A stretch of DNA of 64,000 nucleotides from Candidatus Kaiserbacteria bacterium RIFCSPHIGHO2_01_FULL_54_36 (GCA_001781105.1 MFKV01000007.1:4912-68911); one strand, 5' to 3'. Counted from the stretch's first letter, positions 9,824 through 62,160 are shown. Numbers and translations: made by a program. Notes: generated by a model not told the origin, from the letters alone.

Positions 9824-9851
9824 GAAATGCAAACGCACGCGTTTGCATTTC
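9824..9851. other. 28-nt near-perfect palindrome GAAATGCAAACGC-AC-GCGTTTGCATTTC after obg
   Basis: 13-nt arms seen directly. No U-tract, so it may be a protein-binding site rather than a terminator. Confidence 0.4.
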
Positions 9852-9876
9852 GCTCGCTATCCTCGGCAGATAAAAC

Positions 9877-9901
9877 AAAAGCGCCCCATAAGGGCGCTTT
9901 T
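9877..9901. terminator. bidirectional intrinsic terminator (AAAA-GCGCCC-cataa-GGGCGC-TTTT) between convergent obg and csp
   Basis: GC stem flanked by A- and T-tracts. Confidence 0.7.
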
Positions 9902-9917
9902 GCTCAAACCGTTAGGT

Positions 9918-15345: not shown

Positions 15346-15354
15346 CTTCCAACT

Positions 15355-15383
15355 ATATGCTAATTCGCGCGAATTAGCATATA
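15355..15383. promoter_or_regulatory. perfect 26-nt palindromic operator TATGCTAATTCGCGCGAATTAGCATA upstream of the second ArsR gene
   Basis: Perfect inverted repeat about 10 nt upstream of the ArsR start codon. Confidence 0.5.
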
Positions 15384-22520: not shown

Positions 22521-22625
22521 TGAGCGACAACACGGACGCACGCGGTTAACCGCGTGCGTCCACTCTTTATCCACCTATTCCGGACGTTTACGGCGAGGTT
22601 TTTTGTGGTACAATCCCCTTTTCTC

Positions 22626-25070: not shown

Positions 25071-25111
25071 TTCTCAAGCCCACGAAAATCGTGCAGTAGG
25101 TTGCATGACGC

Positions 25112-25136
25112 AAAAAGCCCTATCATAGGGCTTTTT
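25112..25136 (+). terminator. intrinsic terminator AAAAAGCCCTAT-c-ATAGGGCTTTTT
   Basis: Perfect stem flanked by A- and T-runs. Confidence 0.7.
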
Positions 25137-25169
25137 GCGTGTTCGTGTGGGACGTAGTAGGCTAGTGCG

Positions 25170-29527: not shown

Positions 29528-30067
29528 TCAAGCTTTAGTGTACACAACCCCAGCTCCAGTTTTGCCGACTCTCCTTACCCGTCCTTCTTTCACGAGGATC
29601 GAGAGGTAGCGTGTAGCCGTTGCATCCGAGACGTGCAAAAGTTTCTCGACATCGTTGTTGGTTACTTGTGGTGAGCTTGTCGAACCATCCTGTTTCTTCT
29701 CTTCGAACATCGCCATGATCCTATCGAGCTTCTTTTGTTTCCGCTCCTGAGTTTTCGCATGGCCTTTCATGAGCAGCTCACGGTTGCGAGTAATGGCGGG
29801 AGTTGAAGCACTCGTTGGCGGAGTGGTAGGCGGCTCCTGCGGTGGGGTAAACGGCTCAGTCTGGATACTCAACGGCTCATCGACCGGTCGATGAGCCGTT
29901 CCCACTTCCGGCTGAGCCGTTTTACCCTGAGCATCGTCGATGGGTTGCTCCGCTGGCTCTGCCGGGGCTTCCTGTGACGGCGTTGCTGGCTCCGACGCGC
30001 CTTGCCCTTCCGTAGCCTCGGGCGAAGGAGGGGTTGCAGCGGGCTGCGATGTATCGTCGTCGGCCAT
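29528..30067 (-). CDS. DNA-binding protein with a Pro/Ala/Glu-rich disordered N-terminus and a C-terminal winged HTH
   Basis: C-terminal VEKLLHVSDATATRYLSILVKEGRVRRVG HTH. Start ambiguous. Confidence 0.5.
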   Translation of the reverse strand: MADDDTSQPAATPPSPEATEGQGASEPATPSQEAPAEPAEQPIDDAQGKTAQPEVGTAHRPVDEPLSIQTEPFTPPQEPPTTPPTSASTPAITRNRELLMKGHAKTQERKQKKLDRIMAMFEEKKQDGSTSSPQVTNNDVEKLLHVSDATATRYLSILVKEGRVRRVGKTGAGVVYTKA

Positions 30068-33968: not shown

Positions 33969-35435
33969 ATGTCGGAGCAGGATATACGCGCTGAGCGGCT
34001 GAAGAAGCTCGAACTTCTGAAGGAGGCGGGCATGGAGGCATACCCGACTTCAACCGCGCGCGACGCTTCCATCGCGGATTTTTTGAGCGTTTTCAAGGAA
34101 TTAGAAACAAGCGGCCGGCAATCAGTGATTGCCGGCCGCGTCATGTCTTTGCGCGGGCAGGGCGGTATTACATTTGTTGACCTCTTTGATGGAACAGGTA
34201 AAGTCCAACTTGTTCTCCAAAAGTCCAAATCCGATGAGGTGACACCTCATCGGTTCCAACTGTTTGTAGATGTCGTTGATATGGGAGATCTTATCGAAGC
34301 CGCTGGTGTTGCGTACGTCACGAAGCGCGGAGAGCAATCACTTAAAGTACAGGAGTGGAAAATGCTTGCAAAGTCCCTGTTGCCGATCCCGACAGAGCAT
34401 TTTGGTATCAAAGACGAAGAACTGATCCTGCGCCAGCGATACCTCGACATTCTTCTCAACGAAGACGTGCGCAAAATGTTCGAACGCCGCGCGCGATTCT
34501 GGCAGGCGGCACGAGAGTTCTATCTCTCTCGGGGATTTCTCGAGGTCGAGACGCCGGTTCTCGAAACGACGCCAGGCGGCGCCGACGCGCGTCCATTCAA
34601 GACGCACCACCACGCACTCGATATCGATGTGTACCTGCGCATTTCCGTAGGCGAGCTATGGCAGAAAAAACTCCTCATCGCTGGATTTCCGAAAGTATTC
34701 GAGATCGGGCGCGTATTCCGCAACGAAGGCCAATCCCGCGAGCACTTGCAGGATTACACACAACTTGAATCATATGAGGCATATGCTGATGCGAAAGCAG
34801 GGATAGAATTCCTCAAAGAGTTCTATCGGTATATTGTGAAAGAAACGTACGGGCAGTACACTTTCAAGATAGGCGAGCACGAAGGTGATTTTGCAGCAGA
34901 GTGGCCATCCATTGATTTTTGCGAAACGATACAAAAGGAGTACGGCATAGACCCGGTTACCGTTTCTGAGGACGACGCCATTGCCGCGGCGAAGAGTGCG
35001 GGCGTGCAATTCGGCGAAGCGCCAAATAAACTGCGAGCATTAGACGGATTATGGAAACTCATACGCAAGAAGATCTCTGGCCCGGCATTTCTGACTGGCG
35101 TACCGGTATTCCTCGAGCCTCTGGCAAAGCGCGTTCCAAGCAATCCAAATATCGTGGATCGTATTCAGGTGATCCTCGCTGGCTCCGAAATGGGGAAGGG
35201 GTACAGTGAGCTCAACGACCCGCAGGATCAACGCGCGCGCTTCGAGGAGCAGCAGAAACTGCGCGACGCGGGCGACGACGAAGCGCAGCGCCTCGACGAG
35301 GATTACATTCGGGCGATGGAGTACGGCATGCCGCCAGCTTTCGGTTTCGGCGTCTCTGAGCGACTTTTCTCGTTCCTCGAAAATCGCCCGGCCCACGAGG
35401 CGCAACTGTTCCCACTTGTACGCCCGAAAAAGTAG
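33969..35435 (+). CDS. lysS: lysine--tRNA ligase (class II)
   Basis: N-terminal OB-fold anticodon-binding domain and class II motifs (motif 2 FRNEG, motif 3 GFGxGxxRL). Confidence 0.9.
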   Translation: MSEQDIRAERLKKLELLKEAGMEAYPTSTARDASIADFLSVFKELETSGRQSVIAGRVMSLRGQGGITFVDLFDGTGKVQLVLQKSKSDEVTPHRFQLFVDVVDMGDLIEAAGVAYVTKRGEQSLKVQEWKMLAKSLLPIPTEHFGIKDEELILRQRYLDILLNEDVRKMFERRARFWQAAREFYLSRGFLEVETPVLETTPGGADARPFKTHHHALDIDVYLRISVGELWQKKLLIAGFPKVFEIGRVFRNEGQSREHLQDYTQLESYEAYADAKAGIEFLKEFYRYIVKETYGQYTFKIGEHEGDFAAEWPSIDFCETIQKEYGIDPVTVSEDDAIAAAKSAGVQFGEAPNKLRALDGLWKLIRKKISGPAFLTGVPVFLEPLAKRVPSNPNIVDRIQVILAGSEMGKGYSELNDPQDQRARFEEQQKLRDAGDDEAQRLDEDYIRAMEYGMPPAFGFGVSERLFSFLENRPAHEAQLFPLVRPKK

Positions 35436-35501: not shown

Positions 35502-35702
35502 ATGAGCGAAGGATTTCGTGAAGATACGTCGGTAGAAGGGCCCTGCAAGCGTTGCGGAGATGCTGCGCTTAAGGATATGGGTTCTGTGATCCAATGTGGG
35601 GCATGCTTCTCTCTTGTGTGCCTCTCGCCCCTGGAACTTTCTTTGATGGGCGGACGATGGTCGGACGACAATGGAACACCGCCCACGCCCGTAGCGACCT
35701 GA
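35502..35702 (+). CDS. small zinc-ribbon-like protein
   Basis: CKRCG...CGAC motifs. AGGAG RBS 8 nt upstream. A GC hairpin follows at 35701..35725. Confidence 0.45.
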   Translation: MSEGFREDTSVEGPCKRCGDAALKDMGSVIQCGACFSLVCLSPLELSLMGGRWSDDNGTPPTPVAT

Positions 35703-35738
35703 GCCCGCAGCGCAGCTGCGGGCTCAGCACTTATTGAT

Positions 35739-36293: not shown

Positions 36294-36300
36294 TCCTCAT

Positions 36301-36332
36301 CCCGATACTTCACGAGATCGTGAAGTATCGGG
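36301..36332. terminator. perfect 15-bp-arm palindrome CCCGATACTTCACGA-g-TCGTGAAGTATCGGG after msrA
   Basis: Seen directly. Weak T-run follows. Confidence 0.5.
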
Positions 36333-36345
36333 ATTCCTGAAAAAC

Positions 36346-38036: not shown

Positions 38037-40055
38037 GTGAAATTTAAGATCAGATCACACTATAAACCCGCCGGCGATCAGCCGACAGCTATTGCTGCAC
38101 TCGTGAAGGGCTTGGAGGGAGGCGTGCGCGATCAGACGCTATTGGGTGTCACCGGCTCGGGCAAGACATTCACTGTGGCCAATGTCATCGCCCAGGTGCA
38201 GCGCCCGACGCTGGTGATCGCGCACAACAAGACGCTCGCGGCGCAGCTCGCTGCCGAGTACCGCGAATTCTTCCCCGATGCAGCCGTACACTACTTCGTT
38301 TCCTACTACGATTACTACCAACCAGAGGCCTATGTGCCCGTTACGGACACGTATATTGAGAAGGAAGCACAGGTCAATGAAGACATCGAGCAGCTGCGGC
38401 ATGCGGCTACGCAGGCCCTGCTCACGCGAAAAGACGTGATCATCGTAGCCTCCGTATCCTGCATCTACGGCCTCGGCAGCCCCGTCGAGTATGAGAAAGT
38501 GAATTTGAAACTGACAAAAAGCGAAGCGATGACTCGCGCCACGCTCACCCGCAAGCTCATTTCTATTTATTTCGATCGAGTGACTGGTGATCTGAAGCCC
38601 GGCACCTTCCGCGCGCTCGGGGCTACTGTAGAGATCATGCCGGCAAGTGAGCGCGTGATATATCGAGTAGATCTGACGGGCGGGAAGATCGCGAAGATAG
38701 AAGAGATCGACGCAACAACGCGTGAAATTCAAGGCAAGCAGGAGGCACTCTTTATTTTCCCGGCACGGCAGTATGTGACGCCAAAAGACGTACAAGATGC
38801 AGCCCTTGCCGATATCGAGCTCGAGCTTGCAGAGCAGCTCAAGAAGTTCGATACACAAGGCAAGATCCTCGAAGCGGAGCGCCTCAAGCGTCGCACGCGC
38901 CAAGATGTCGCGATGATACGCGAGTTCGGCTTCTGCAATGGCATCGAGAACTACTCGCGGCATTTCGATAGGCGAAAGCCCGGCGAGCCGCCGTATACAC
39001 TTCTCTCCTACTTTCCAAGAGATTTCCTGACGGTCATTGATGAGTCGCACGTGACGGTGCCCCAGATCGGCGGCATGTATGCCGGCGATCGCTCGCGCAA
39101 GAACACGCTCGTCGAGCACGGCTTTCGCCTGCCAAGCGCCGTAGACAATCGACCCCTGCAGTTTGAAGAATTCCGGGAGCGGACAGGGCAGACGCTTTAT
39201 ACCTCGGCGACACCCGCACAGTTTGAGCTCGAGAAGAGCGGCGTGCCTGTGTCACAAGTTATTCGCCCGACCGGGCTCATAGACCCCGAGATCATCGTTC
39301 GCCCAATAGTCAGCGGTTCAAAATATGGACACGGCGTGTCCATATTTCCTGGACAAGTGAAAGATTTTATCGCCGAGGCAGAGGCGGTAACGAAGAAAGG
39401 CACTCGCTCGATGGTGACGGTGCTTACCAAGAAAATGGCGGAAGACCTGACGGCGTTCCTCGTAGAAAAACACATCAAGGCGCGGTATGTGCACAGCGAT
39501 GTTCTCACTATCGAGCGCATTGAGATATTGCGCGATTTCCGCAAAGGGGTCTTCGATGTCTTGGTAGGGGTCAACCTCTTGCGCGAAGGACTCGACTTGC
39601 CGGAAGTTGAGCTAGTGGGAATTCTCGATGCCGACAAAGAAGGCTTCCTGCGTTCTGAGACATCGCTCATCCAGACTATAGGGCGGGCGGCGCGCAACGT
39701 GCATGGCCGCGTCATACTGTATGCAGATCAGATGACGGGCTCGATGGAGCGTGCGATTGGCGAGACCAATCGCCGTAGGGTTATTCAGGTAGCGTACAAC
39801 AAAAAGCACAAGATAACGCCAAAGACGATCATAAAGCGCATCCACGACATCGTGGGCGATATCGAACGTGCCCGCAAGCGCGCAGTCGCCGATCTGGTAG
39901 CCTTGGATAAAGCAGCCTTCGGTGGCGACACGGCGAAGCTTCTTCGCGAAAAGCGCCGCCAAATGCACGACGCAGCGGATCGGCTCGACTTTGAGACTGC
40001 AGCGCTCCTGCGGGATGAGATACTTACCCTTGAGAAGGGTGTGAAGAAGAAATAG
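38037..40055 (+). CDS. uvrB: excinuclease ABC subunit B
   Basis: GVTGSGKT Walker A, helicase motifs, and a C-terminal UVR domain. GTG start. Confidence 0.95.
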   Translation: MKFKIRSHYKPAGDQPTAIAALVKGLEGGVRDQTLLGVTGSGKTFTVANVIAQVQRPTLVIAHNKTLAAQLAAEYREFFPDAAVHYFVSYYDYYQPEAYVPVTDTYIEKEAQVNEDIEQLRHAATQALLTRKDVIIVASVSCIYGLGSPVEYEKVNLKLTKSEAMTRATLTRKLISIYFDRVTGDLKPGTFRALGATVEIMPASERVIYRVDLTGGKIAKIEEIDATTREIQGKQEALFIFPARQYVTPKDVQDAALADIELELAEQLKKFDTQGKILEAERLKRRTRQDVAMIREFGFCNGIENYSRHFDRRKPGEPPYTLLSYFPRDFLTVIDESHVTVPQIGGMYAGDRSRKNTLVEHGFRLPSAVDNRPLQFEEFRERTGQTLYTSATPAQFELEKSGVPVSQVIRPTGLIDPEIIVRPIVSGSKYGHGVSIFPGQVKDFIAEAEAVTKKGTRSMVTVLTKKMAEDLTAFLVEKHIKARYVHSDVLTIERIEILRDFRKGVFDVLVGVNLLREGLDLPEVELVGILDADKEGFLRSETSLIQTIGRAARNVHGRVILYADQMTGSMERAIGETNRRRVIQVAYNKKHKITPKTIIKRIHDIVGDIERARKRAVADLVALDKAAFGGDTAKLLREKRRQMHDAADRLDFETAALLRDEILTLEKGVKKK

Positions 40056-41040: not shown

Positions 41041-43683
41041 ATGGCAGAAAAAGATATAGGGGCAGATAAGATCGTCATAAAAGGCGCACGGACACATAAT
41101 TTGAAAAATGTGTCAGTGGAGATTCCGCGCAATAAAATGGTGGTGTTTACGGGACTTTCAGGCAGCGGCAAGTCCTCGCTTGCGTTCGACACGATCTTTG
41201 CCGAAGGGCAACGAAAGTACGTTGAGTCTCTTTCAGCATACGCGCGACAATTTTTGCGCCAAATGCAAAAGCCCGATGTTGACGAGATATCCGGCCTCTC
41301 ACCGGCAATTTCTATCGACCAAAAGAGCCGCTCCAACAATCCTCGCTCCACCGTCGCGACCATAACTGAGATCTACGACTACCTGCGTGTCCTCTACGCT
41401 CGCGTCGGGAAGCCGCACTGCATAGAGTGTGGGCGAGAAGTGCGAAAGCTTTCCAACGAGGAAATCCTGGAGTCTGTGCTAAGCATCGTTGAAGGCGCGA
41501 GAAAGGGCGATGGTCGACCTCGTAGGTCGACCATGCTGACGAAAGGAGTTTCGAATGCGAAGATCCGCATCAGTGCTCCGGTCGTGGTGGGCCGCAAGGG
41601 CGAGTACTACCAGCTCCTCTACGACATGCTCAATAAAGGATTTGAGAAAGTTATTATTGATGGACAAGAAACGTCACTACGCACACGAATAGATCTCAAG
41701 AAACATTTCAAGCACGACATAGATATTGTGGTAGACGAAATATTCATCTCTGAGTTTACCGATGATGCAAAAGCCGCACACGAGCGCGCCAGCGAGGCTA
41801 TTGAGCGGGCGCTGCATGAAGCGGGCGGCCTGGTAAAAATTACCGACGCAGAAGGGCAATCACGCATCGTATCCGCAAAATTCATGTGCCCGTACGACGG
41901 GTTCTCGTTCCCCGAGATAGAGCCGCGGCTCTTTTCCTTCAACTCGCCATACGGCGCGTGCCCGGAGTGCAAAGGCTTGGGCACGAAGTATTTTTTCGGC
42001 GATGAGCCGTGCGATATATGCCAGGGCGCCCGCTTGCGTCCCGAGGCGCTCAATGTGTTTCTGGGCAAAGTGGAGGAGCCGGCAGAGCACAATGGTCCAG
42101 CCATAGGGACCAATATCGTACATCTTTCGTCGCTTTCGATTGAGGACGCGATGGATTTCTTCAACGGGCTGAAGCTCACCAAGAAAGAACAAGAGATCTC
42201 AAAGGCCGTCATCAAAGAGATCACGAGCCGCCTCCAATTCATGCTCAATGTCGGTATCGAGTACCTAACGCTCGATCGTAAGGCCAATACGCTCTCAGGG
42301 GGTGAGGCGCAGCGCATTCGGCTTGCTTCTCAACTCGGTAGCGGGCTTGTGGGTGCCTTGTACGTGCTCGATGAGCCCACCATAGGACTTCACCAACGCG
42401 ACAACGACAAGCTCATACAGACCCTTCAGCGCCTGCGCGATCTCGGCAACACCGTGCTCGTCGTCGAACACGACGAAGACACGATATTCGCTTCTGATTA
42501 CATCGTGGATCTTGGCCCCGGTGCCGGTGTACACGGCGGTGAGATCGTCGTGTCGGGATGGCTAGACGATCTTTTGACCGCGAAAACCAATAAGTCGGGC
42601 TCTCGAACGCTCGGATATTTGCGCGAAGAGGAAGCCATTCCTATACCGGAGAAACGTCGCACCGCCGACCGAGGGAAGATAAAAATACGCGGCGCTTCCA
42701 AATTCAATATCCAGAATATGAATATTGATGTACCACTCGCGAAGTTCGTCGCCGTTTCGGGAGTTTCCGGCTCGGGCAAGTCCACATTTCTGTATGAAAT
42801 TCTCCATCGCAACCTGCAAGCACGCTTCGACAAGCGTTATCGAACTGCGAAAACCTACAATGCAAAAGAATTTTCCGGCACCGAGTATCTCGGCCGGGCG
42901 ATATTGATAGATCAATCGCCGATCGGGCGCACGCCCCGCTCGAATCCTGCCACCTACACGGGAGCCTGGACCCACATCCGCGATATGTTCGCGATGTCGG
43001 AAGAGGCCCGAGCGCGCGGTTGGGGCCCCGGGCGCTTCTCGTTCAACGTGAAAGGTGGGCGCTGCGAAGCGTGCCAGGGCAACGGCCTCATTGCCGTAGA
43101 GATGCACTTCTTGCCGACCGTGTATGTCACCTGCGACGTGTGCAACGGCAAGCGATTCATGAAAGAAACACTGGAGGTCAAATTCAAGAACAAAAACATT
43201 CACCAGATACTTTCGATGACCGTCGAAGAAGCGCGAGCATTCTTCGATGATATTCCCGCAATCGCAGACCGCCTGCAGAGCTTATCTGACGTTGGGCTCG
43301 ATTACCTTGAGCTCGGGCAAAGCGCGACAACGCTTTCCGGCGGGGAAGCACAGCGCGTGAAGATCGCCTCAGAGCTGTATCGCCCACTCATCCAGAAGAG
43401 CATCTACTTGCTCGATGAGCCGACGGTCGGCTTGCACTACGACGACGTCGCGAAGCTTATCCAAATACTGCAGAAGCTTGTCGAGCGTGGCAACACGGTC
43501 GTCACGATCGAGCACAACCTAGATGTCTTGAAATCCGCGGATTACATCATTGATATGGGCCCGGAAGGCGGATCCGCGGGCGGCGACATCGTCGCGAAGG
43601 GGACTCCTGAAGAAGTTTCTAAAACTGATGGTTCGCACACAGGCTATTACTTGAAACGAGTTTTGAAAAAATCCCGCAGGTAG
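41041..43683 (+). CDS. uvrA: excinuclease ABC subunit A
   Basis: Two ABC ATPase modules ([18 protein letters not shown]), zinc-finger CxxC pairs, LSGGE signatures. Contains the in-frame 25-nt palindrome at 41510..41534. Confidence 0.95.
41510..41534. repeat. 25-nt perfect palindrome ATGGTCGACCTCGTAGGTCGACCAT, in-frame inside uvrA (encodes DGRPRRSTM)
   Basis: 10-nt arms containing two SalI-type GTCGAC cores. Identical copies at 47670 and 60160; a compensatory variant at 45770. Confidence 0.85.
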
Positions 43684-43835: not shown

Positions 43836-46800
43836 TTATGAACGATACTCCTCCCACGACTTCGCTTTCAACCCATTGCCTTTCTGTTCCGCAAGCGCTG
43901 TCACGAAGGCCTCTGCGAGCTGGCGGTTGGTGATGAGCGGAATGTTCATATCTACCGCTTTGCGGCGGATGATGGAGCCGTCGGTCGTCTCGCCGGCGAA
44001 GGCACGCGTCGGGATATTGATGATGAGATCCATTCTACCGAGCGCCTCGGAGACATTGGGCGCTTTTTTACTGCTGATCTTGTAGAGCTTTTCACATGGC
44101 AGGCCAGACTCATGCAAATATTCTGCAGTATGCTCTGTCGCAAAGAGTTTGAATTTCGTATTAGAAAGCAGTTTCATCGTTTCCAGTAGCTTCACCTTGC
44201 TCTCCTCGCCGCCGATTGAGACGAGGATATTTTTGCGCGGCAAGCGAAAGCCGGCAGCCATCATGGACTTGAGGAGTGCTTCAGAGTAGGAATCCCCGAA
44301 ACAGGCGACTTCGCCTGTGGACGCCATTTCTACACCTGTCCGTGGGTCAGCGCCTTTGATGCGGCTGTATGAAAATTGTGGCGATTTGACTGCAACACAA
44401 TCGAGTTCGACCGTGCGGTAGTTGCCCGAGACATCCTTGCCAAGCATTGCACGCGTAGCAATGTCAATGAAATTGTGTCCGGTGACTTTGGAAACGAAGG
44501 GGAAGCTGCGCGAGGCGCGCACGTTGCATTCGATGACTTGCAAGCGATTATCCTTTGCTATGAACTGCATGTTGAAGGGCCCGGTGATCTTGAGGGCTTT
44601 GATAATTGCTTTGGTGATCTCTTTGGCACGGCGGATAGTCTCCAGATACGTGCGCTGCGGAGGAAGCACTACCGTAGCGTCACCAGAGTGCGTGCCGGCA
44701 TTCTCCACGTGTTCGGTAATGGCATAGATAGCGAGTGTGCCGCGAGAAGCGACGCCATCGATCTCGATCTCCCGCGCGTTCTCTATGAATTTGGATATGA
44801 CGACCGGATGTTCAGGCGACATGATGGCCGCGCGGTCCAAAAAATTCTGAAGCGTTTTCCTGTCGTACGCGACCTTCATTGCCGCGCCTGACAGGACGTA
44901 TGACGGGCGCACGAGTACGGGGTACCCGATTGTCTCAGCGACAGCTGCTGCCTGTGAGGGAGAGGTGACTTCCGTCCATGCCGGCTGCTCTACTCCGAGC
45001 GTATCGAGAAGCTTGGAGAACACATGCCTGTCTTCCGCGCGGTCGATATCCTCCGGATTCGTGCCGAGAATTTTGATCTTGTTCTTATGGAGTTTAAGCG
45101 CAAGATTGTTGGGGATCTGGCCGCCGGTCGAGACCACGACCCCCTCGGGCTTTTCGAATTCCACGATATCGAGAATGCGCTCGAGCGTAAGCTCTTCGAA
45201 GTAGAGCCGATCCGACATGTCGTAGTCGGTCGAGACAGTCTCCGGATTCGAATTGATCATAATGGTGCGCTTACCGCAGGCCTTCAGCGTCTTCAGCGCC
45301 TGCACGCACGACCAGTCGAACTCGACCGATGACCCGATGCAGTATGGGCCCGAACCCAGCACTGCAACCTGCTTTTTTCCCGGGATGACGTCGTGTTCAG
45401 TGCCATGATAGGTGAGATACAGATAGTTCGTCTGCGCGGGGAATTCGCCTGCGAGCGTATCGATCTGTTTGACTACCGGCAGAATCCTTAGCTTTTTGCG
45501 CAGTGCGCGTACAGACTCTTCGTTAATCTTTTTTATCACTGCAATTTGCGCATCAGAAAATCCGAGCTTCTTTGCTGCTTGCATCGTTTGCTTATTGAGG
45601 CGGTTCTTCGAGATGTGACGCTCGAACTCTACGATGTTGCGCATCTTCTCCAAAAACCACCGATCGATCCCCGAAAGTTTGTGAATCTTCTCTACCGACG
45701 TTCTTCTACGAAATGCCGCTGCGATCGCAAAAATTCTTCGGGTCGTAGGTATCCTGACCTCTTTTTCGCATGATGGACCTCGTAGGTCCATCATTGTTGC
45801 CGGAAGCGAGAATCCACTCGCACCTACATTTAGCATGCGAAGCGCTTTTTGCAGCACCTCTTCGAACGAGCGGCCGATCGCCATCACTTCGCCTACGCTT
45901 TTCATTTCTGTCCCGATACGTTGTGCGGCATTCTCAAATTTGCCCAAGTCCCAACGCGGCATCTTGAGCACCAAATAATCGAGCGCTGGCTCGAAGCAGG
46001 CGGTCGTGATACCCGTGACGGAATTTTTGATCTCGGGCAGCGTGTAGCCGAGTGCGAGTTTGGCCGCGACGAACGCCAACGGATAGCCGGTCGCCTTCGA
46101 AGCGAGTGCCGATGAGCGGCTTAGGCGCGCATTGACCTCGATGACGCGGTAATCTGCTGTCTCGGGGTGCAGTGCATATTGGATATTGCACTCGCCGACG
46201 ATTCCCAAGTGTCGAATGGTCCTGATAGAAATTTCGCGCAGCCGATGGTATTCCTCATTGGAGAGTGTTTGAGAAGGAGCGACTACCATGCTCTCGCCTG
46301 TATGTATTCCCATCGGATCGATGTTTTCCATGTTGCACACGGTGATGCAGTTATCGGCCCTGTCGCGCACGACTTCGTATTCGACCTCCTTCCAGCCGCT
46401 TAGGTTTTCCTCGATGAGTACTTGCGGAGTCGACCTGAATACTTCCGAAAGCTTCGCGGACAGTTCCTCCGTATTTTTTACCATTCCCGACCCTTCACCA
46501 CCGAGAGCAAATCCCGCGCGCATCATGACGGGGTAGCCAATGTCCGCCGCGGCTGCGAGTGCCTCTTTCGTATTTTTTGCAGCGCGGCTGCGAGCAGTCT
46601 TTACTTCTATCTCATGGAGGCGCTTCACGAAAAGGTCGCGATCTTCCGTGTCGCGAATCACCGATACAGGCGTACCAAGTACGCGCACGCCGAATTTCCT
46701 GAGAGTGCCACTTTTCTCGAGCGCGAGGCCGAGGTTGAGCGCTGTCTGGCCACCGAATGAGAGAAGGATCGCGTCAGGCTTTTCTTTCTTGATCACCTGC

Positions 46801-47018
46801 GTTGCGAAGTGCTCGGTAAGGGGAAGGAAGTACACGGTATCTGCCAGGCCTTGGTCGGTTTGCACGGTCGCGATGTTGGGATTCATGAGCACTACCTCGA
46901 TCTTTTCTTCCTTCAGTGCCTTGATCGCTTGTGAGCCGCTGTAGTCGAATTCTCCCGCCTGGCCGATCTTCAGACCACCGCTGCCAAGCAATAATACTTT
47001 TTTGAGTTTATGCTTCAT
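43836..47018 (-). CDS. carB: carbamoyl-phosphate synthase large subunit
   Basis: Duplicated ATP-grasp halves, oligomerisation domain and MGS-like domain. 1060 aa. Confidence 0.95.
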   Translation of the reverse strand: MKHKLKKVLLLGSGGLKIGQAGEFDYSGSQAIKALKEEKIEVVLMNPNIATVQTDQGLADTVYFLPLTEHFATQVIKKEKPDAILLSFGGQTALNLGLALEKSGTLRKFGVRVLGTPVSVIRDTEDRDLFVKRLHEIEVKTARSRAAKNTKEALAAAADIGYPVMMRAGFALGGEGSGMVKNTEELSAKLSEVFRSTPQVLIEENLSGWKEVEYEVVRDRADNCITVCNMENIDPMGIHTGESMVVAPSQTLSNEEYHRLREISIRTIRHLGIVGECNIQYALHPETADYRVIEVNARLSRSSALASKATGYPLAFVAAKLALGYTLPEIKNSVTGITTACFEPALDYLVLKMPRWDLGKFENAAQRIGTEMKSVGEVMAIGRSFEEVLQKALRMLNVGASGFSLPATMMDLRGPSCEKEVRIPTTRRIFAIAAAFRRRTSVEKIHKLSGIDRWFLEKMRNIVEFERHISKNRLNKQTMQAAKKLGFSDAQIAVIKKINEESVRALRKKLRILPVVKQIDTLAGEFPAQTNYLYLTYHGTEHDVIPGKKQVAVLGSGPYCIGSSVEFDWSCVQALKTLKACGKRTIMINSNPETVSTDYDMSDRLYFEELTLERILDIVEFEKPEGVVVSTGGQIPNNLALKLHKNKIKILGTNPEDIDRAEDRHVFSKLLDTLGVEQPAWTEVTSPSQAAAVAETIGYPVLVRPSYVLSGAAMKVAYDRKTLQNFLDRAAIMSPEHPVVISKFIENAREIEIDGVASRGTLAIYAITEHVENAGTHSGDATVVLPPQRTYLETIRRAKEITKAIIKALKITGPFNMQFIAKDNRLQVIECNVRASRSFPFVSKVTGHNFIDIATRAMLGKDVSGNYRTVELDCVAVKSPQFSYSRIKGADPRTGVEMASTGEVACFGDSYSEALLKSMMAAGFRLPRKNILVSIGGEESKVKLLETMKLLSNTKFKLFATEHTAEYLHESGLPCEKLYKISSKKAPNVSEALGRMDLIINIPTRAFAGETTDGSIIRRKAVDMNIPLITNRQLAEAFVTALAEQKGNGLKAKSWEEYRS
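45770..45794. repeat. variant 25-nt palindrome ATGATGGACCTCGTAGGTCCATCAT, in-frame inside carB (encodes MMDLRGPS)
   Basis: Same central CCTCGTAGG. Arm changes are compensatory (G-to-A with C-to-T, and C-to-G with G-to-C), so the palindrome is preserved. Confidence 0.8.
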
Positions 47019-48112
47019 ACCTTCTTCAATGAGCGGATGAAGTCGTCGAAGATCCAGGCGGTATCTGTGGGGCCGGGCGAGGCCTCGGGGTGGAATTGCA
47101 CCGAGCGCCAGGGCTTGCTCTTGTGCCGTATCCCTTCGTTGGAGCCGTCATTGGCGTTCACAAACCACTCTTCCCACCCTTCGGGAAGCGTTTTTCCGTC
47201 TACGGCGAAGCCGTGATTTTGGGAGGTGATGTAGCATTTACCCTGAGCGGAGTCGAAGGGCCGGCCACCCTTTAGTTCAATGCATGGCTGGTTTTGGGAG
47301 CGATGGCCGTATGTAAGCTTGTACGTCGAGGCACCCGCCGCGAGCGCCAAGAGCTGGTTGCCAAGGCACACTCCCAGTATCGGTTTGTTGTCCTTCATAG
47401 CTGCGCGAATATGCCCTATCGGGATGCCGCACTGCGTCGGATCACCAGGGCCGTTGGAGAGAACGAGCGCATCGTACTTATCGGAAGTGAAGTCGTAATC
47501 CCACGGTACTCGCGTCACGGTGGTTTCGGGTCGTATGAGCGAGCGGACGATGTTCTCTTTCATTCCGCAATCGAGCGCAATTATTTTGATCGGGCCAGTA
47601 CCGTATGTCTTCTTTTTCCTCGGACTGACTTTTGCAACAAGATTTTCGTCGTTTGGATCCTTGAACTCCATGGTCGACCTCGTAGGTCGACCATGCTCCA
47701 ATCGCCCCAGCATTACCCCGTGTTCGCGGAGCTTCTTCGTAAGTGCGCGGGTGTCTACTCCAGTGATCGCCGGCACACCGGAGGCTTTGAGCCATTCGGC
47801 AAGTGAGTGCTTGGCATCGTGATGAGAATAGTTCTCCGAGTATTCCGAAACGACGAGCCCTGCTATTTGTATCTTGGACGACTCGAAGTTTTTGTCGGGC
47901 TTGCCCTTCGAAGCCTTGGCGAAGGAGGGCACGCCGTAGTTGCCGACCAGCGGATAAGTGAGTACTACGATCTGACCGGCGTATGAAGGATCTGAAAGAC
48001 TTTCAACGTAACCCGTCATCCCAGTGTTGAAAACGACCTCACCAGGGACGTTCTTCGGAGCACCAAAGCTCTGGCCCTCGAACACTGAACCGTCTTTGAG
48101 AATCAATTTCAT
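47015..48112 (-). CDS. carA: carbamoyl-phosphate synthase small subunit
   Basis: CPSase small-chain N-domain plus class I GATase (Cys-His-Glu triad context GVCLGNQLL). Overlaps the carB start by 4 nt. Confidence 0.95.
   Translation of the reverse strand: MKLILKDGSVFEGQSFGAPKNVPGEVVFNTGMTGYVESLSDPSYAGQIVVLTYPLVGNYGVPSFAKASKGKPDKNFESSKIQIAGLVVSEYSENYSHHDAKHSLAEWLKASGVPAITGVDTRALTKKLREHGVMLGRLEHGRPTRSTMEFKDPNDENLVAKVSPRKKKTYGTGPIKIIALDCGMKENIVRSLIRPETTVTRVPWDYDFTSDKYDALVLSNGPGDPTQCGIPIGHIRAAMKDNKPILGVCLGNQLLALAAGASTYKLTYGHRSQNQPCIELKGGRPFDSAQGKCYITSQNHGFAVDGKTLPEGWEEWFVNANDGSNEGIRHKSKPWRSVQFHPEASPGPTDTAWIFDDFIRSLKKV
47670..47694. repeat. 25-nt palindrome ATGGTCGACCTCGTAGGTCGACCAT, in-frame inside carA (encodes HGRPTRSTM on the gene strand)
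   Basis: Identical to the uvrA copy. Lies in the linker between the CarA N-domain and the GATase domain. Confidence 0.85.
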
Positions 48113-60061: not shown

Positions 60062-60664
60062 TCAACGCCTGCTTTCTATCGCGCTCTTGATGGTGTCGGG
60101 ATCTGCGTATTCCAATTCGCTGCCGGTCGAGAGCCCGCGGCCCAGCGCCGTAATCTTCAATGGTCGACCTCGTAGGTCGACCATTTTCTTTCTGACTTGT
60201 TCTGCAGTCGCGTCGCCCTCGGGATTCGCAGGGAATGCGAGTATGATTTCCATTAATCCCGCTTTTGTTCGAGCGGGCACGGCCTCAAGAAGCTGCTTCA
60301 TGCGCAAATTGTTGCCCGTATCGCTTGCGAGCGAGACAGTACCGCCGAGTACAAAGTAGTGCCCGCGGAAATTATGCGAATGTTCGAGGGCGGCAAGGTC
60401 CGCGTCACTTGCGACGACAGCGAGAAGTGAGGCATCACGTCCAGGATCCGTACAGATCGCGCAGACTTTCTCTTTTCCGCTAAAGAAGCGCATGCACTCT
60501 GCACACTGGTGCACCGAGCCGCCAAGCGATTGCACCGCATCCATTAGTTCGCGACGCGTCGCAGCGGAGGAGCGCAGCAAAAATTGCACGAATCGTTGCG
60601 CTTGGCGCGGACCGATACCGGGAAATCTTTCGAATAATTGAGTCAGTCGTTCTATCGAGTCCAT
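60062..60664 (-). CDS. recR: recombination protein RecR
   Basis: HhH motif FPGIGPRQAQR, C4 zinc finger CAECMRFFSGKEKVCAIC, Toprim domain. Contains the in-frame 25-nt palindrome at 60160..60184. Confidence 0.9.
   Translation of the reverse strand: MDSIERLTQLFERFPGIGPRQAQRFVQFLLRSSAATRRELMDAVQSLGGSVHQCAECMRFFSGKEKVCAICTDPGRDASLLAVVASDADLAALEHSHNFRGHYFVLGGTVSLASDTGNNLRMKQLLEAVPARTKAGLMEIILAFPANPEGDATAEQVRKKMVDLRGRPLKITALGRGLSTGSELEYADPDTIKSAIESRR
60160..60184. repeat. 25-nt palindrome ATGGTCGACCTCGTAGGTCGACCAT, in-frame inside recR (encodes MVDLRGRP)
   Basis: Identical to the uvrA and carA copies but read in a different frame. Confidence 0.85.
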
Positions 60665-60765: not shown

Positions 60766-62160
60766 TCAAAACGGCGATTCGCCAGAGCCTGCAACTTCCG
60801 TTTCTTCAGGTTTGTAATCGCCGAAGTCGCTCCTATCAATAGAGAGGAAGGTCGTCTTTTCTTCGTCGAAGCGGAGCTCCACTTTGCCGACCGGCCCGTT
60901 GCGATGTTTTTCTACCAAGATCTCGGCAATGCCGGGCCGGTCGGAATTCTCATTCATCTTGTCGTCACGATGGATGAACATTACGACATCGGCGTCTTGT
61001 TCGATGGAGCCCGAATCGCGAAGATCCGATAGCCGTGGGCGGCCTCGTCGTTGCTCAACCGCGCGTGATAACTGCGAAAGTGCCAAGACGGGGATCTCAA
61101 GCTCGCGCGCCATAGCCTTGAGTGAGCGGGAGATCTCAGTGATCTGCTGTACCAGATTGTCGCTCGAGCGCGAATAGGTGGGGGTGATGAGTTGCAGATA
61201 ATCCACGATGATGAGCCCGAGGTCTTTTTCCATTTTGAGCCGGCGCGCGACACTACGCATTGCAAGGACGGTCGTCGAAGCCTTGTCGTCAATATAGATC
61301 GGTGCCTCAGCCAAAACTCCCATACCTGACTGCAATCGCTCGAATTCGTCTTCATCTTTTATCTTGCCGGTGCGAAGCCGCCATGAGTTGACGCCGGCCT
61401 GCGCGGCAAGCATGCGATCCACAAGCTGCTGGGAGCTCATCTCGAGCGAGAAGATGCCGACGGGCACGTTGTACTTCGTTGCGCTCTGGCGTGCGATGTC
61501 GAGCGCAAGGGCGGTTTTGCCCATTGAGGGGCGGGCGGCGAGTATGACGAGGTCGGATTTTTGGAAGCCGGCGAGCAAATTGTCGAGCTGAGGAAAGCCC
61601 GATGGCACGCCGCGAATGGAGCCGCTGTGCTTCTGGAGTCCCTCAAGCCGCTCCCATGCTTCAGCGAGCTCGTCTTTGATGGCAGTGAAAGAGCGCAGCA
61701 TCGGCGTCTGCGTCACGGAGAAAACTGCAGACTGTGCCTCGTCGAGGATCGTCTCGATATCCCGGTCCTCTTCAAAGCCCAGTTCTCCGACCTTCGCCGC
61801 GGCATCAATAAGGCTGCGCAATACGAATTTCGTCTGCACCCCTTGCGCATAATGCCGTGCCGAGCCGGGGCTCGCGGCTGCACCAACCATCTCGGAGAGG
61901 TATGCCGCCCCACCGATCTCGTTCAAGAGTTTGCGCTCCTTGAGCTTGCTAGAAAGCGTTACGACATCGATCGGTTCACCCTTCGCAAAAAGCGCAAGCA
62001 TGGCGTCGTATATAGTGCGATGTTTGCCGGCATAGAAGGAGTCCACGCCGACCAAGTCTGCGACCTCGTAGATCGCATTTTGGTTGAGCATGAGAGCTCC
62101 AAGGAGAGCTCGCTCCATTTCTATGTCTTGCGGCGGCGCTTTTACGCTGCTGGTTCCCAT
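60766..62160 (-). CDS. dnaB: replicative DNA helicase
   Basis: Walker A GARPSMGKT and DnaB N- and C-domains. 464 aa with no intein. Confidence 0.95.
   Translation of the reverse strand: MGTSSVKAPPQDIEMERALLGALMLNQNAIYEVADLVGVDSFYAGKHRTIYDAMLALFAKGEPIDVVTLSSKLKERKLLNEIGGAAYLSEMVGAAASPGSARHYAQGVQTKFVLRSLIDAAAKVGELGFEEDRDIETILDEAQSAVFSVTQTPMLRSFTAIKDELAEAWERLEGLQKHSGSIRGVPSGFPQLDNLLAGFQKSDLVILAARPSMGKTALALDIARQSATKYNVPVGIFSLEMSSQQLVDRMLAAQAGVNSWRLRTGKIKDEDEFERLQSGMGVLAEAPIYIDDKASTTVLAMRSVARRLKMEKDLGLIIVDYLQLITPTYSRSSDNLVQQITEISRSLKAMARELEIPVLALSQLSRAVEQRRGRPRLSDLRDSGSIEQDADVVMFIHRDDKMNENSDRPGIAEILVEKHRNGPVGKVELRFDEEKTTFLSIDRSDFGDYKPEETEVAGSGESPF

Follow-up and report, generated by a model that had tools for sequence, protein, structure and literature searches.

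The window analysed here, a stretch of 64,000 nucleotides from Candidatus Kaiserbacteria bacterium RIFCSPHIGHO2_01_FULL_54_36 (GCA_001781105.1, MFKV01000007.1:4912-68911), carries four 25-nt palindromes inside uvrA, carB, carA and recR. These are probably hairpin repeats resembling the repetitive extragenic palindromic (REP) sequences, paired with a Y1 (HUH) transposase gene of the REP-associated type that lies elsewhere in the same genome, a member of the Patescibacteria or candidate phyla radiation (CPR). The hairpin family to which they belong is tied to this transposase gene, with arms that covary, loops that flip and most copies lying in frame inside genes. Its arm types are largely genome-specific and are common to the copies beside the transposase gene and to those dispersed elsewhere.

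Four hairpins in conserved genes

The copies in the window, the genes that host them and one neighbouring stretch of carB are listed below, with positions counted from the first letter of the window.

41041..43683, plus strand: uvrA, 880 aa, host gene
41510..41534, in the plus-strand gene uvrA: master-type hairpin, reading (D)GRPRRST(M)
43836..47018, minus strand: carB, carbamoyl-phosphate synthase large subunit, 1060 aa, host of the variant copy
45741..45759, minus strand: native carB stretch encoding V-R-I-P-T-T-R, outside the element
45770..45794, in carB: variant hairpin ATGATGGACCT-CGT-AGGTCCATCAT, minus-strand reading MMDLRGPS, CarB residues 409-416
47015..48112, minus strand: carA, carbamoyl-phosphate synthase small subunit, 365 aa, host gene
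47670..47694, in carA: master-type hairpin ATGGTCGACCT-CGT-AGGTCGACCAT, minus-strand reading (H)GRPTRST(M), CarA residues 140-148
60062..60664, minus strand: recR, 200 aa, host gene
60160..60184, in the minus-strand gene recR: master-type hairpin, reading MVDLRGRP

Three exact copies of the 25-mer ATGGTCGACCTCGTAGGTCGACCAT are present in the window (41510-41534, 47670-47694 and 60160-60184), bearing out the preliminary description of this DNA in which the carA, uvrA and recR copies were called identical, and no chance copies are expected (100 shuffles). Chance or artefact as the source of the palindromes was ruled out by this expectation of zero and by their presence in independent assemblies from several projects. 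The carB variant ATGATGGACCTCGTAGGTCCATCAT (45770-45794) differs from the other three copies at positions 4 (G>A) and 6 (C>G) with the exact complements at positions 22 and 20, such that pairing is kept and the arm changes are compensatory, as had been proposed. Both forms make an 11-bp stem with a 3-nt CGT loop, which replaces the earlier account of a 10-bp stem and 5-nt loop, with the palindrome broken at the central bases only. As single-stranded DNA the folds have predicted energies of -11.5 kcal/mol (GTCGAC form) and -10.3 kcal/mol (carB form), with z of about -7.

All four copies are intragenic and in frame, and all four host proteins (UvrA, CarB, CarA and RecR) align over their full length to solved homologues. 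The CarB peptide MMDLRGPS is located where the oligomerisation domain begins, at its junction with the first ATP-grasp half, while the CarA peptide HGRPTRSTM forms part of a coil between the two domains, where the structure model has a mean predicted local distance difference test (pLDDT) score of 62 over residues 141-150. Structure alignments and the CarA model agree with the earlier placement of these two copies, on minus-strand genes, in the CarA inter-domain linker and around CarB residue 409. The supposed decayed partial copy at 45741-45759 proved to be native CarB coding sequence with the motif PTTRRIF. Of 120 CarB orthologues, the 117 without a palindrome included, nearly all have a PTxxR-type motif here, and the stretch folds no better than shuffled sequence (z = -1.25), its 8-base match to the palindrome arising because it is the reverse complement of the P-T-T codons. 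A 13-mer with one mismatch at 62062 was also rejected as a copy, having no flanking arms and sitting in the N-terminal part of a 464-aa open reading frame (ORF; 60766-62160) which, as read from the sequence without a family search, we take to encode a DnaB-type replicative helicase.

On the plus strand the loop has the CGT form in all four copies (41522, 45782, 47682 and 60172) regardless of gene strand, an arrangement that is not significant (p = 0.125), and GC skew is positive across most of the window. A replication-strand bias of the loop form, if real, would suit single-strand transposases.

A Y1 transposase-like gene bounded by its own hairpins

A scan of one genome per species with the pattern ATGNTNGACCTCGTAGGTCNANCAT, in which two variable positions per arm were left free, identified 52 matches at 39 loci, every locus being a Patescibacteria metagenome-assembled genome. 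At several loci clusters of the hairpin surround an ORF of approximately 220 aa. A tblastn search with the L015 ORF located the gene in eight of the 39 loci, which had been fetched solely by the palindrome, compared with an expectation, by our own estimate, of approximately 0.3 of 39 loci if the gene were single-copy and the genome about 1 Mb in size. Scored against Pfam Y1_Tnp (cut-off 23 bits), the L015 ORF reached 25.9 bits and the homologue P0259 27.2 bits, with P0313 at only 19.7. The N-H-Y-H and Y-I-H-L-N-P motifs are invariant in 48 homologues, and a structure model built with these (pLDDT 73) had as its best PDB match 4ER8 (E = 3.4e-6), followed by the ISDra2 and IS608 TnpA proteins. 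The 4ER8 structure is that of the E. coli REP-associated tyrosine transposase (RAYT) bound to a REP hairpin (PDB 4ER8). The gene lies outside the window but in the same genome, the RecR of the window being A2763_02575 and P0259 being A2763_04250.

At the P0259 locus (L045) an exact ATGGTCGACCTCGTAGGTCGACCAT lies 5 nt upstream of the start codon, the gene itself contains a degenerate copy, and approximately 16 nt past the stop codon comes a copy that is flipped and has a single mutation in its loop. Hairpins at approximately 5-35 nt from the start and stop codons are found in L045, L044, L047, L048, L049, L015, L018 and L013. L047, L048 and L049 were fetched by the protein and not by the palindrome, and each has copies of its own arm type upstream, inside and downstream of the gene, the arms being as follows.

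L047: ATGATGGAGAT-CGT-ATCTCCATCAT
L048: ATGAACGACTT-CGT-AAGTCGTTCAT
L049: GTCGGGAGAT-CGT-ATCTCCCGAC

L044 mixes two arm types. In this locus (MFKT01000009.1, from a related genome; 2966-2990, 3151-3175) the form ATATCTGGATTT-CGT-AAATCCAGATAT lies upstream of and inside the gene, with the GTCGAC type on the downstream side. The 3′ end of the gene and the flank beyond it are almost identical to their L045 counterparts while the 5′ halves differ, and L044 has the appearance of a recombinant.

The hairpin inside the gene is translated. In all 120 homologues listed, the eight residues M-x-[DE]-[LIF]-[RV]-x-x-[ST] occupy a fixed loop before the HUH motif, corresponding to a low-confidence segment of the model (residues 40-54). 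The central residue of this peptide is V (CGT) in 60 homologues and R (ACG) in 58, and proteins that are 97-98% identical differ in it, indicating that the 3-nt loop flips as a unit, and often. The carB hairpin type is also found within some transposase genes (MMDLRGPS/MMDLVGPS). The transposase gene adjoins a GAPDH gene in L018, L044, L045 and L049, with other contexts in L047 and L048, and the GAPDH neighbourhood suggests vertical inheritance. A large gene near the transposase gene in L018 (73-5277) and L045 (4067-6684) encodes a giant surface-type protein, with an Intein_splicing match (PF14890) in L045; in L018 this giant gene carries two hairpin copies approximately 100 nt apart, read as MFDLVDRT and MFDLRGRT.

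Arm types, covariation and reading frames

Among the 52 matches of the genome scan five perfectly paired arm types were identified (TTC/GAA, ATG/CAT, ATT/AAT, TTG/CAA and GTC/GAC), with a sixth, AAC/GTT, in a relaxed scan and one unpaired position in three of the 52 copies. A metagenome scan yielded 91 distinct copies, the two sets overlapping in part. The arm types are largely genome-specific. With one observation per genome and type, the four free positions of the pattern paired in 45 of 48 cells compared with 20.3 after shuffling, the observed value being reached in none of 20,000 shuffles, and in the metagenome set 178 of 182 cells paired. When transposase-adjacent hairpins were added, eight of the 11 stem pairs had changes on both sides and 96% of cells paired, against 27-35% when the partner column was slid by 1-3 positions; this set was partly chosen by pairing, such that the pattern-defined test (45/48) is the unbiased one. 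The positions that do not vary are the G7-A8/T18-C19 stem pairs and the apex T-CGT-A. The preliminary description had called for covariation analysis over more copies and genomes, and the covariation of the arms is strong. It had also allowed that the carB variant might be a unique sequence, with its compensation a coincidence, whereas exact relatives of the carB (ATG/CAT) type make up 10 of the 52 genome-scan matches, the window copy counted, and 15 of the 91 metagenome copies.

The three GTCGAC-type copies represent the current type of this genome because they match the hairpins flanking its own transposase gene. The carB copy, of the ATGGAC subfamily that is the cognate type in other genomes, is most likely older or imported and no longer homogenised by the resident enzyme. 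Just two base pairs separate it from the others, and it might instead have evolved in place from a GTCGAC master in two rounds, each a compensatory substitution or a template-switch correction. Template switching in quasi-palindromes is well established as a means of transferring a change between arms, and there are so few arm types (approximately six) that a chance coincidence with an existing type is not negligible. Evolution in place is nevertheless unlikely given that all 25 positions of the carB 25-mer agree with the prevailing type of several genomes (MFLV, CAZNVT, MHRI and H51-041) and with some transposase-gene hairpins, that half-converted intermediates are rare (3/52 in the genome set, 4/91 in the metagenome set) and that in P0006 and P0034 the carB site is occupied by different arm types.

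A homodimeric DNA-binding protein, be it a regulator, a restriction-modification enzyme or the transposase acting on duplex, would likewise be expected to give symmetric arm changes if it read both half-sites, with no hairpin needed. The genome specificity of the arm types would be in keeping with such a protein, as would the arm cores GTCGAC and TTCGAA, which are restriction-type palindromes. The cores ATGGAC/GTCCAT and ATTGAC/GTCAAT, however, are not palindromic hexamers, the asymmetric CGT centre is conserved and flips as a unit, and the associated protein folds like single-strand hairpin enzymes, with the 4ER8 and IS608 complexes as top matches, making duplex reading very unlikely. No methyltransferase or endonuclease was noticed beside the copies, in neighbourhoods inspected without a systematic search.

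In the preferred model, a REP-like hairpin with its own transposase, the enzyme would recognise the folded single-stranded hairpin by putative binding and would spread, exchange or flip copies. An arm change would persist only together with the matching change in its partner because the enzyme would read the fold, leaving the apex and G7-A8/T18-C19 fixed and the other pairs free. Template switching within the palindrome may also restore perfect pairing.

Copies fall in open frames of at least 150 codons in 44 of 62 cases for the window and genome-scan loci and in 59 of 91 for the metagenome set, approximately 65-70%. Four frame/orientation combinations are used. The TAG frame never interrupts a gene, an avoidance that fits translation of the copies, and copies read in the third frame with the loop in the opposite orientation (W/C-S-T-Y-E-V) are very few (1 and 2), possibly because flipping the loop in that frame would introduce a TAG stop. 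Intergenic space being almost absent, the surviving copies would be those in tolerant surface linkers and in a stop-free frame, translated as loop segments of 8-9 residues.

It might be argued that the encoded peptides are themselves selected, for example as a binding or modification motif shared by several enzymes, given their surface-linker position and the recurrence of basic Pro/Arg-rich peptides. This is extremely improbable, in that the four frame/orientation readings give unrelated peptides (GRPRRST among them), conservation is at the nucleotide level including synonymous positions and copies occur in non-coding flanks too. A function primarily at the RNA level, with an mRNA stem-loop tuning the translation of the host genes, pausing or mRNA decay and the link to the transposase being secondary, is rated as highly unlikely. 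The near-perfect palindrome does form the same stem from either transcribed strand, and many classical REPs work as RNA elements (PMC3733652), but the copies in the window have no match to a known RNA family in Rfam, the host genes are mutually unrelated and the arm types follow genomes rather than genes. In addition, intergenic copies flank the transposase gene, and translation alone explains the depletion of the stop frame.

A phage origin of the palindrome was dismissed, a scan of viral contigs with it having given no match. Some loci (L016 and L039, also L007, L010, L020 and L035) are labelled ‘uncultured Candidatus Saccharibacteria’. Their UvrA proteins are 80-89% identical and their CarA/CarB proteins 72-74% identical to those of the window, and the L016 and L039 group has the same uvrA-carB-carA gene order. 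These labels are probably wrong, so the taxonomic spread of the family may be narrower than the record titles imply. Copies are also found at the centre of longer perfect palindromes in L035 (2097-2151), L010, L012, L019 and L033, with up to 15 extra paired bases per side in L035, and the first flanking position pairs in 50% of 112 copies compared with 25% expected. The longer palindromes reflect either outward growth or hairpin insertion into existing hairpins.

Linker sites, known systems and significance

Compared with hairpin-free close orthologues the net gain is one codon in carB, three in carA and two in uvrA, with three in recR, where the comparison was made solely with a distant Thermus structure. 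The hairpin replaces a similar length of native linker, and the idea of a simple inserted octapeptide, a clean insertion of eight codons, had to be given up. The placement in variable inter-domain linkers is supported by structure and orthologue alignments.

The same sites are occupied recurrently. Twelve of 120 CarA orthologues have a hairpin at the exact site used in the window, in either orientation (RPRRS or RPTRS), and the nearest neighbours of occupied CarA proteins (85-92% identical) are mostly without it. Monophyly of the occupied carA alleles was rejected, these being dispersed over a neighbour-joining tree from which the linker columns had been left out. At the DNA level, a stretch of 45 nt in carA of L025 corresponds in position to 36 unrelated nt in its neighbour L040. 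In CarB, three of 120 orthologues have a copy in the same register, namely the window, P0006/L054, with TTCGAA-type arms and a flipped loop, and P0034, with a degenerate copy. The UvrA site of the window holds a flipped-loop copy in L031 and is empty in L016, L039 and L019, with L016 UvrA (89% identical) having QKVAAGGK at the position of the hairpin. No length variants were found in the 90% clusters of the four host proteins, and a gapped scan of the metagenome collection with the uvrA flanks gave no match. The closest fetched locus is at most 76% identical to the window at the DNA level. No closely related strain with an unoccupied site came up in these searches, and either insertion or replacement may have given rise to the present state.

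Linker replacement could come about by insertion plus deletion under selection, by inter-lineage recombination or by in-place cassette exchange. A more elaborate proposal is that hairpin cassettes at fixed sites, including one in the gene of the enzyme itself, undergo repeated rounds of excision, flipping and exchange by the enzyme, with the CarA, CarB and UvrA linkers being rewritten and homogenised and alleles spreading in a homing-like manner. We regard this as doubtful; it would cover the 60:58 split of the loop at the same codon and the orientation differences at 97-98% identity, together with the exact-register recurrence, the genome-specific arms at orthologous sites and the depletion of the third frame in both orientations.

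The closest known systems are those of REP/REPIN sequences and RAYTs (E. coli RayT 4ER8, Pseudomonas). Common to these and to the family described here are a short dispersed hairpin with a Y1 HUH gene flanked by its own hairpin, and a genome-specific hairpin that co-varies with the gene. RAYTs have been described as vertically inherited (bioRxiv 10.1101/2021.07.10.451892), to which the GAPDH-adjacent gene may be likened. The present family differs in its perfect 11-bp stem, 3-nt loop and conserved apex T-CGT-A, in copies that are singletons rather than inverted doublets and mostly intragenic and translated rather than predominantly extragenic, in the hairpin inside the transposase ORF and in its host, the Patescibacteria. 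The protein also exceeds the 165-residue 4ER8 chain by approximately 60 residues and does not reach the NCBIfam equivalog cut-off.

A number of observations weigh against the interpretation as a REP-like repeat with its own transposase. Against the NCBIfam REP_Tyr_transpos equivalog (NF047646) the protein scored 30.2 bits and missed the cut-off of 80, there was no sequence-level match to a PDB transposase with either a single sequence or a profile, and the structural match to 4ER8 is moderate (template modelling scores 0.45/0.59, with a model pLDDT of 73). The link between enzyme and hairpin, as read from the sequences, appears as co-location and co-variation only, and a dimeric protein reading duplex would also give symmetric arm changes. 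The hairpin of classical REPs is imperfect and has one of two conserved tetranucleotides, GTAG or CGTC, at its 5′ foot (PMC6006769, PMC3733652). In the present family conservation falls on the apex and on bases of the stem, and no flanking tag, target or guide motif was detected among 112 distinct copies (at most 0.18 bit per position); GTAG is present but in the apex of the main subfamily, with GTAA or GTAT in others. The 25-nt element alone cannot insert in frame, and simple transposition does not explain net gains of 3-9 nt with unrelated native sequence displaced. Recurrence in exact register in carA, carB and uvrA across scattered lineages needs targeting, recombination or in-place exchange.

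In-frame palindromes in functional genes have precedents. Intragenic GTAG/CGTC REPs were described by Di Nocera et al. (2013), in frame and often in genes for replication and repair, uvrA and uvrB being explicit examples, and a flexible linker or loop position was proposed for them (PMC3733652). These REPs and the Rickettsia palindromic elements (RPE) resemble the present family in this respect, the genes here being uvrA, recR, carA and carB, with uvrB for a second family (see below). A minority of the GTAG/CGTC REPs are intragenic, and these often come as dimers that encode 20-30 residues. The copies described here differ from both groups in being single 25-nt units for which an intragenic position is the rule, at linker sites that recur across lineages and with a net gain of 1-3 codons. 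RPE are confined to Rickettsia, their longest class measuring approximately 100-150 bp, and to our knowledge have no dedicated transposase. The element here is 25 nt and all 39 genome-scan loci are Patescibacteria, in-frame placement being common to both.

The IS200/IS605 insertion sequences (IS608 and ISDra2 TnpA) share the Y1 HUH fold (ranks 2-13 of the fold search) and hairpins just outside both gene ends, and by analogy single-strand hairpin recognition would be the expected chemistry. In these elements the two subterminal hairpins are imperfect and differ from each other, the target is a defined tetranucleotide and the complete insertion sequence is multi-copy. The present system is set apart in that one and the same perfect hairpin borders the gene at either end and is dispersed by itself, with no target motif visible. 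In the literature searched there was no description of this sequence, with REP/RAYT in Patescibacteria appearing only as incidental KEGG annotation. By these comparisons the system is of the REP/RAYT type and intragenic REPs are already known; what sets it apart is the combination of apex-conserved untagged hairpins, single and mostly intragenic units, a hairpin in the transposase ORF, recurrent sites and a Patescibacteria host.

Further repeats are present in the window. A second in-frame palindrome family, AAATATGGACAC-GGC-GTGTCCATATTT, with the centre GGC unlike the CGT family, is found at 39321-39347 in uvrB (38037-40055, plus strand), where it reads KYGHGVSIF. An identical 27-mer occupies the carA linker of L039 (7194-7220), and KYGH[AGS][VMT]SIF fills that linker in five of 120 CarA orthologues. 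CarA has a second extra segment, GGRPFDSAQGK (47216-47287), which is absent from human and E. coli carbamoyl-phosphate synthase and is a low-confidence coil in the model. Approximately 20 of the 120 CarA orthologues have related inserts there (FDxAQGK, LRQxSGQV and PSFAKASKG), which look like different reading frames of another repeat family. Additional perfect palindromes with stems of 11-16 bp, each unique in the window, lie at 9824-9851, 9876-9902, 15354-15383, 22534-22561, 25108-25140, 29871-29900, 34111-34139, 35699-35727 and 36299-36334; some may be terminators and others members of other repeat families.

REP-RAYT systems are the best-studied long-lived, vertically inherited bacterial replicators and have been described as extragenic and mainly from Proteobacteria. 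The same kind of partnership is now seen in Patescibacteria, in genomes of approximately 1 Mb with almost no non-coding space, where the repeats lie in essential genes and are translated. The family provides a case of a mobile-element hairpin within the reading frame of its own enzyme, and the clean covariation data, with eight of 11 stem pairs, define the recognition needs of that enzyme. For annotation, short basic peptides such as GRPTRST and MFDLRGRT in CPR proteins are best read as repeat-derived rather than as conserved functional motifs, and the copies form a natural map of insertion-tolerant linkers in conserved enzymes.

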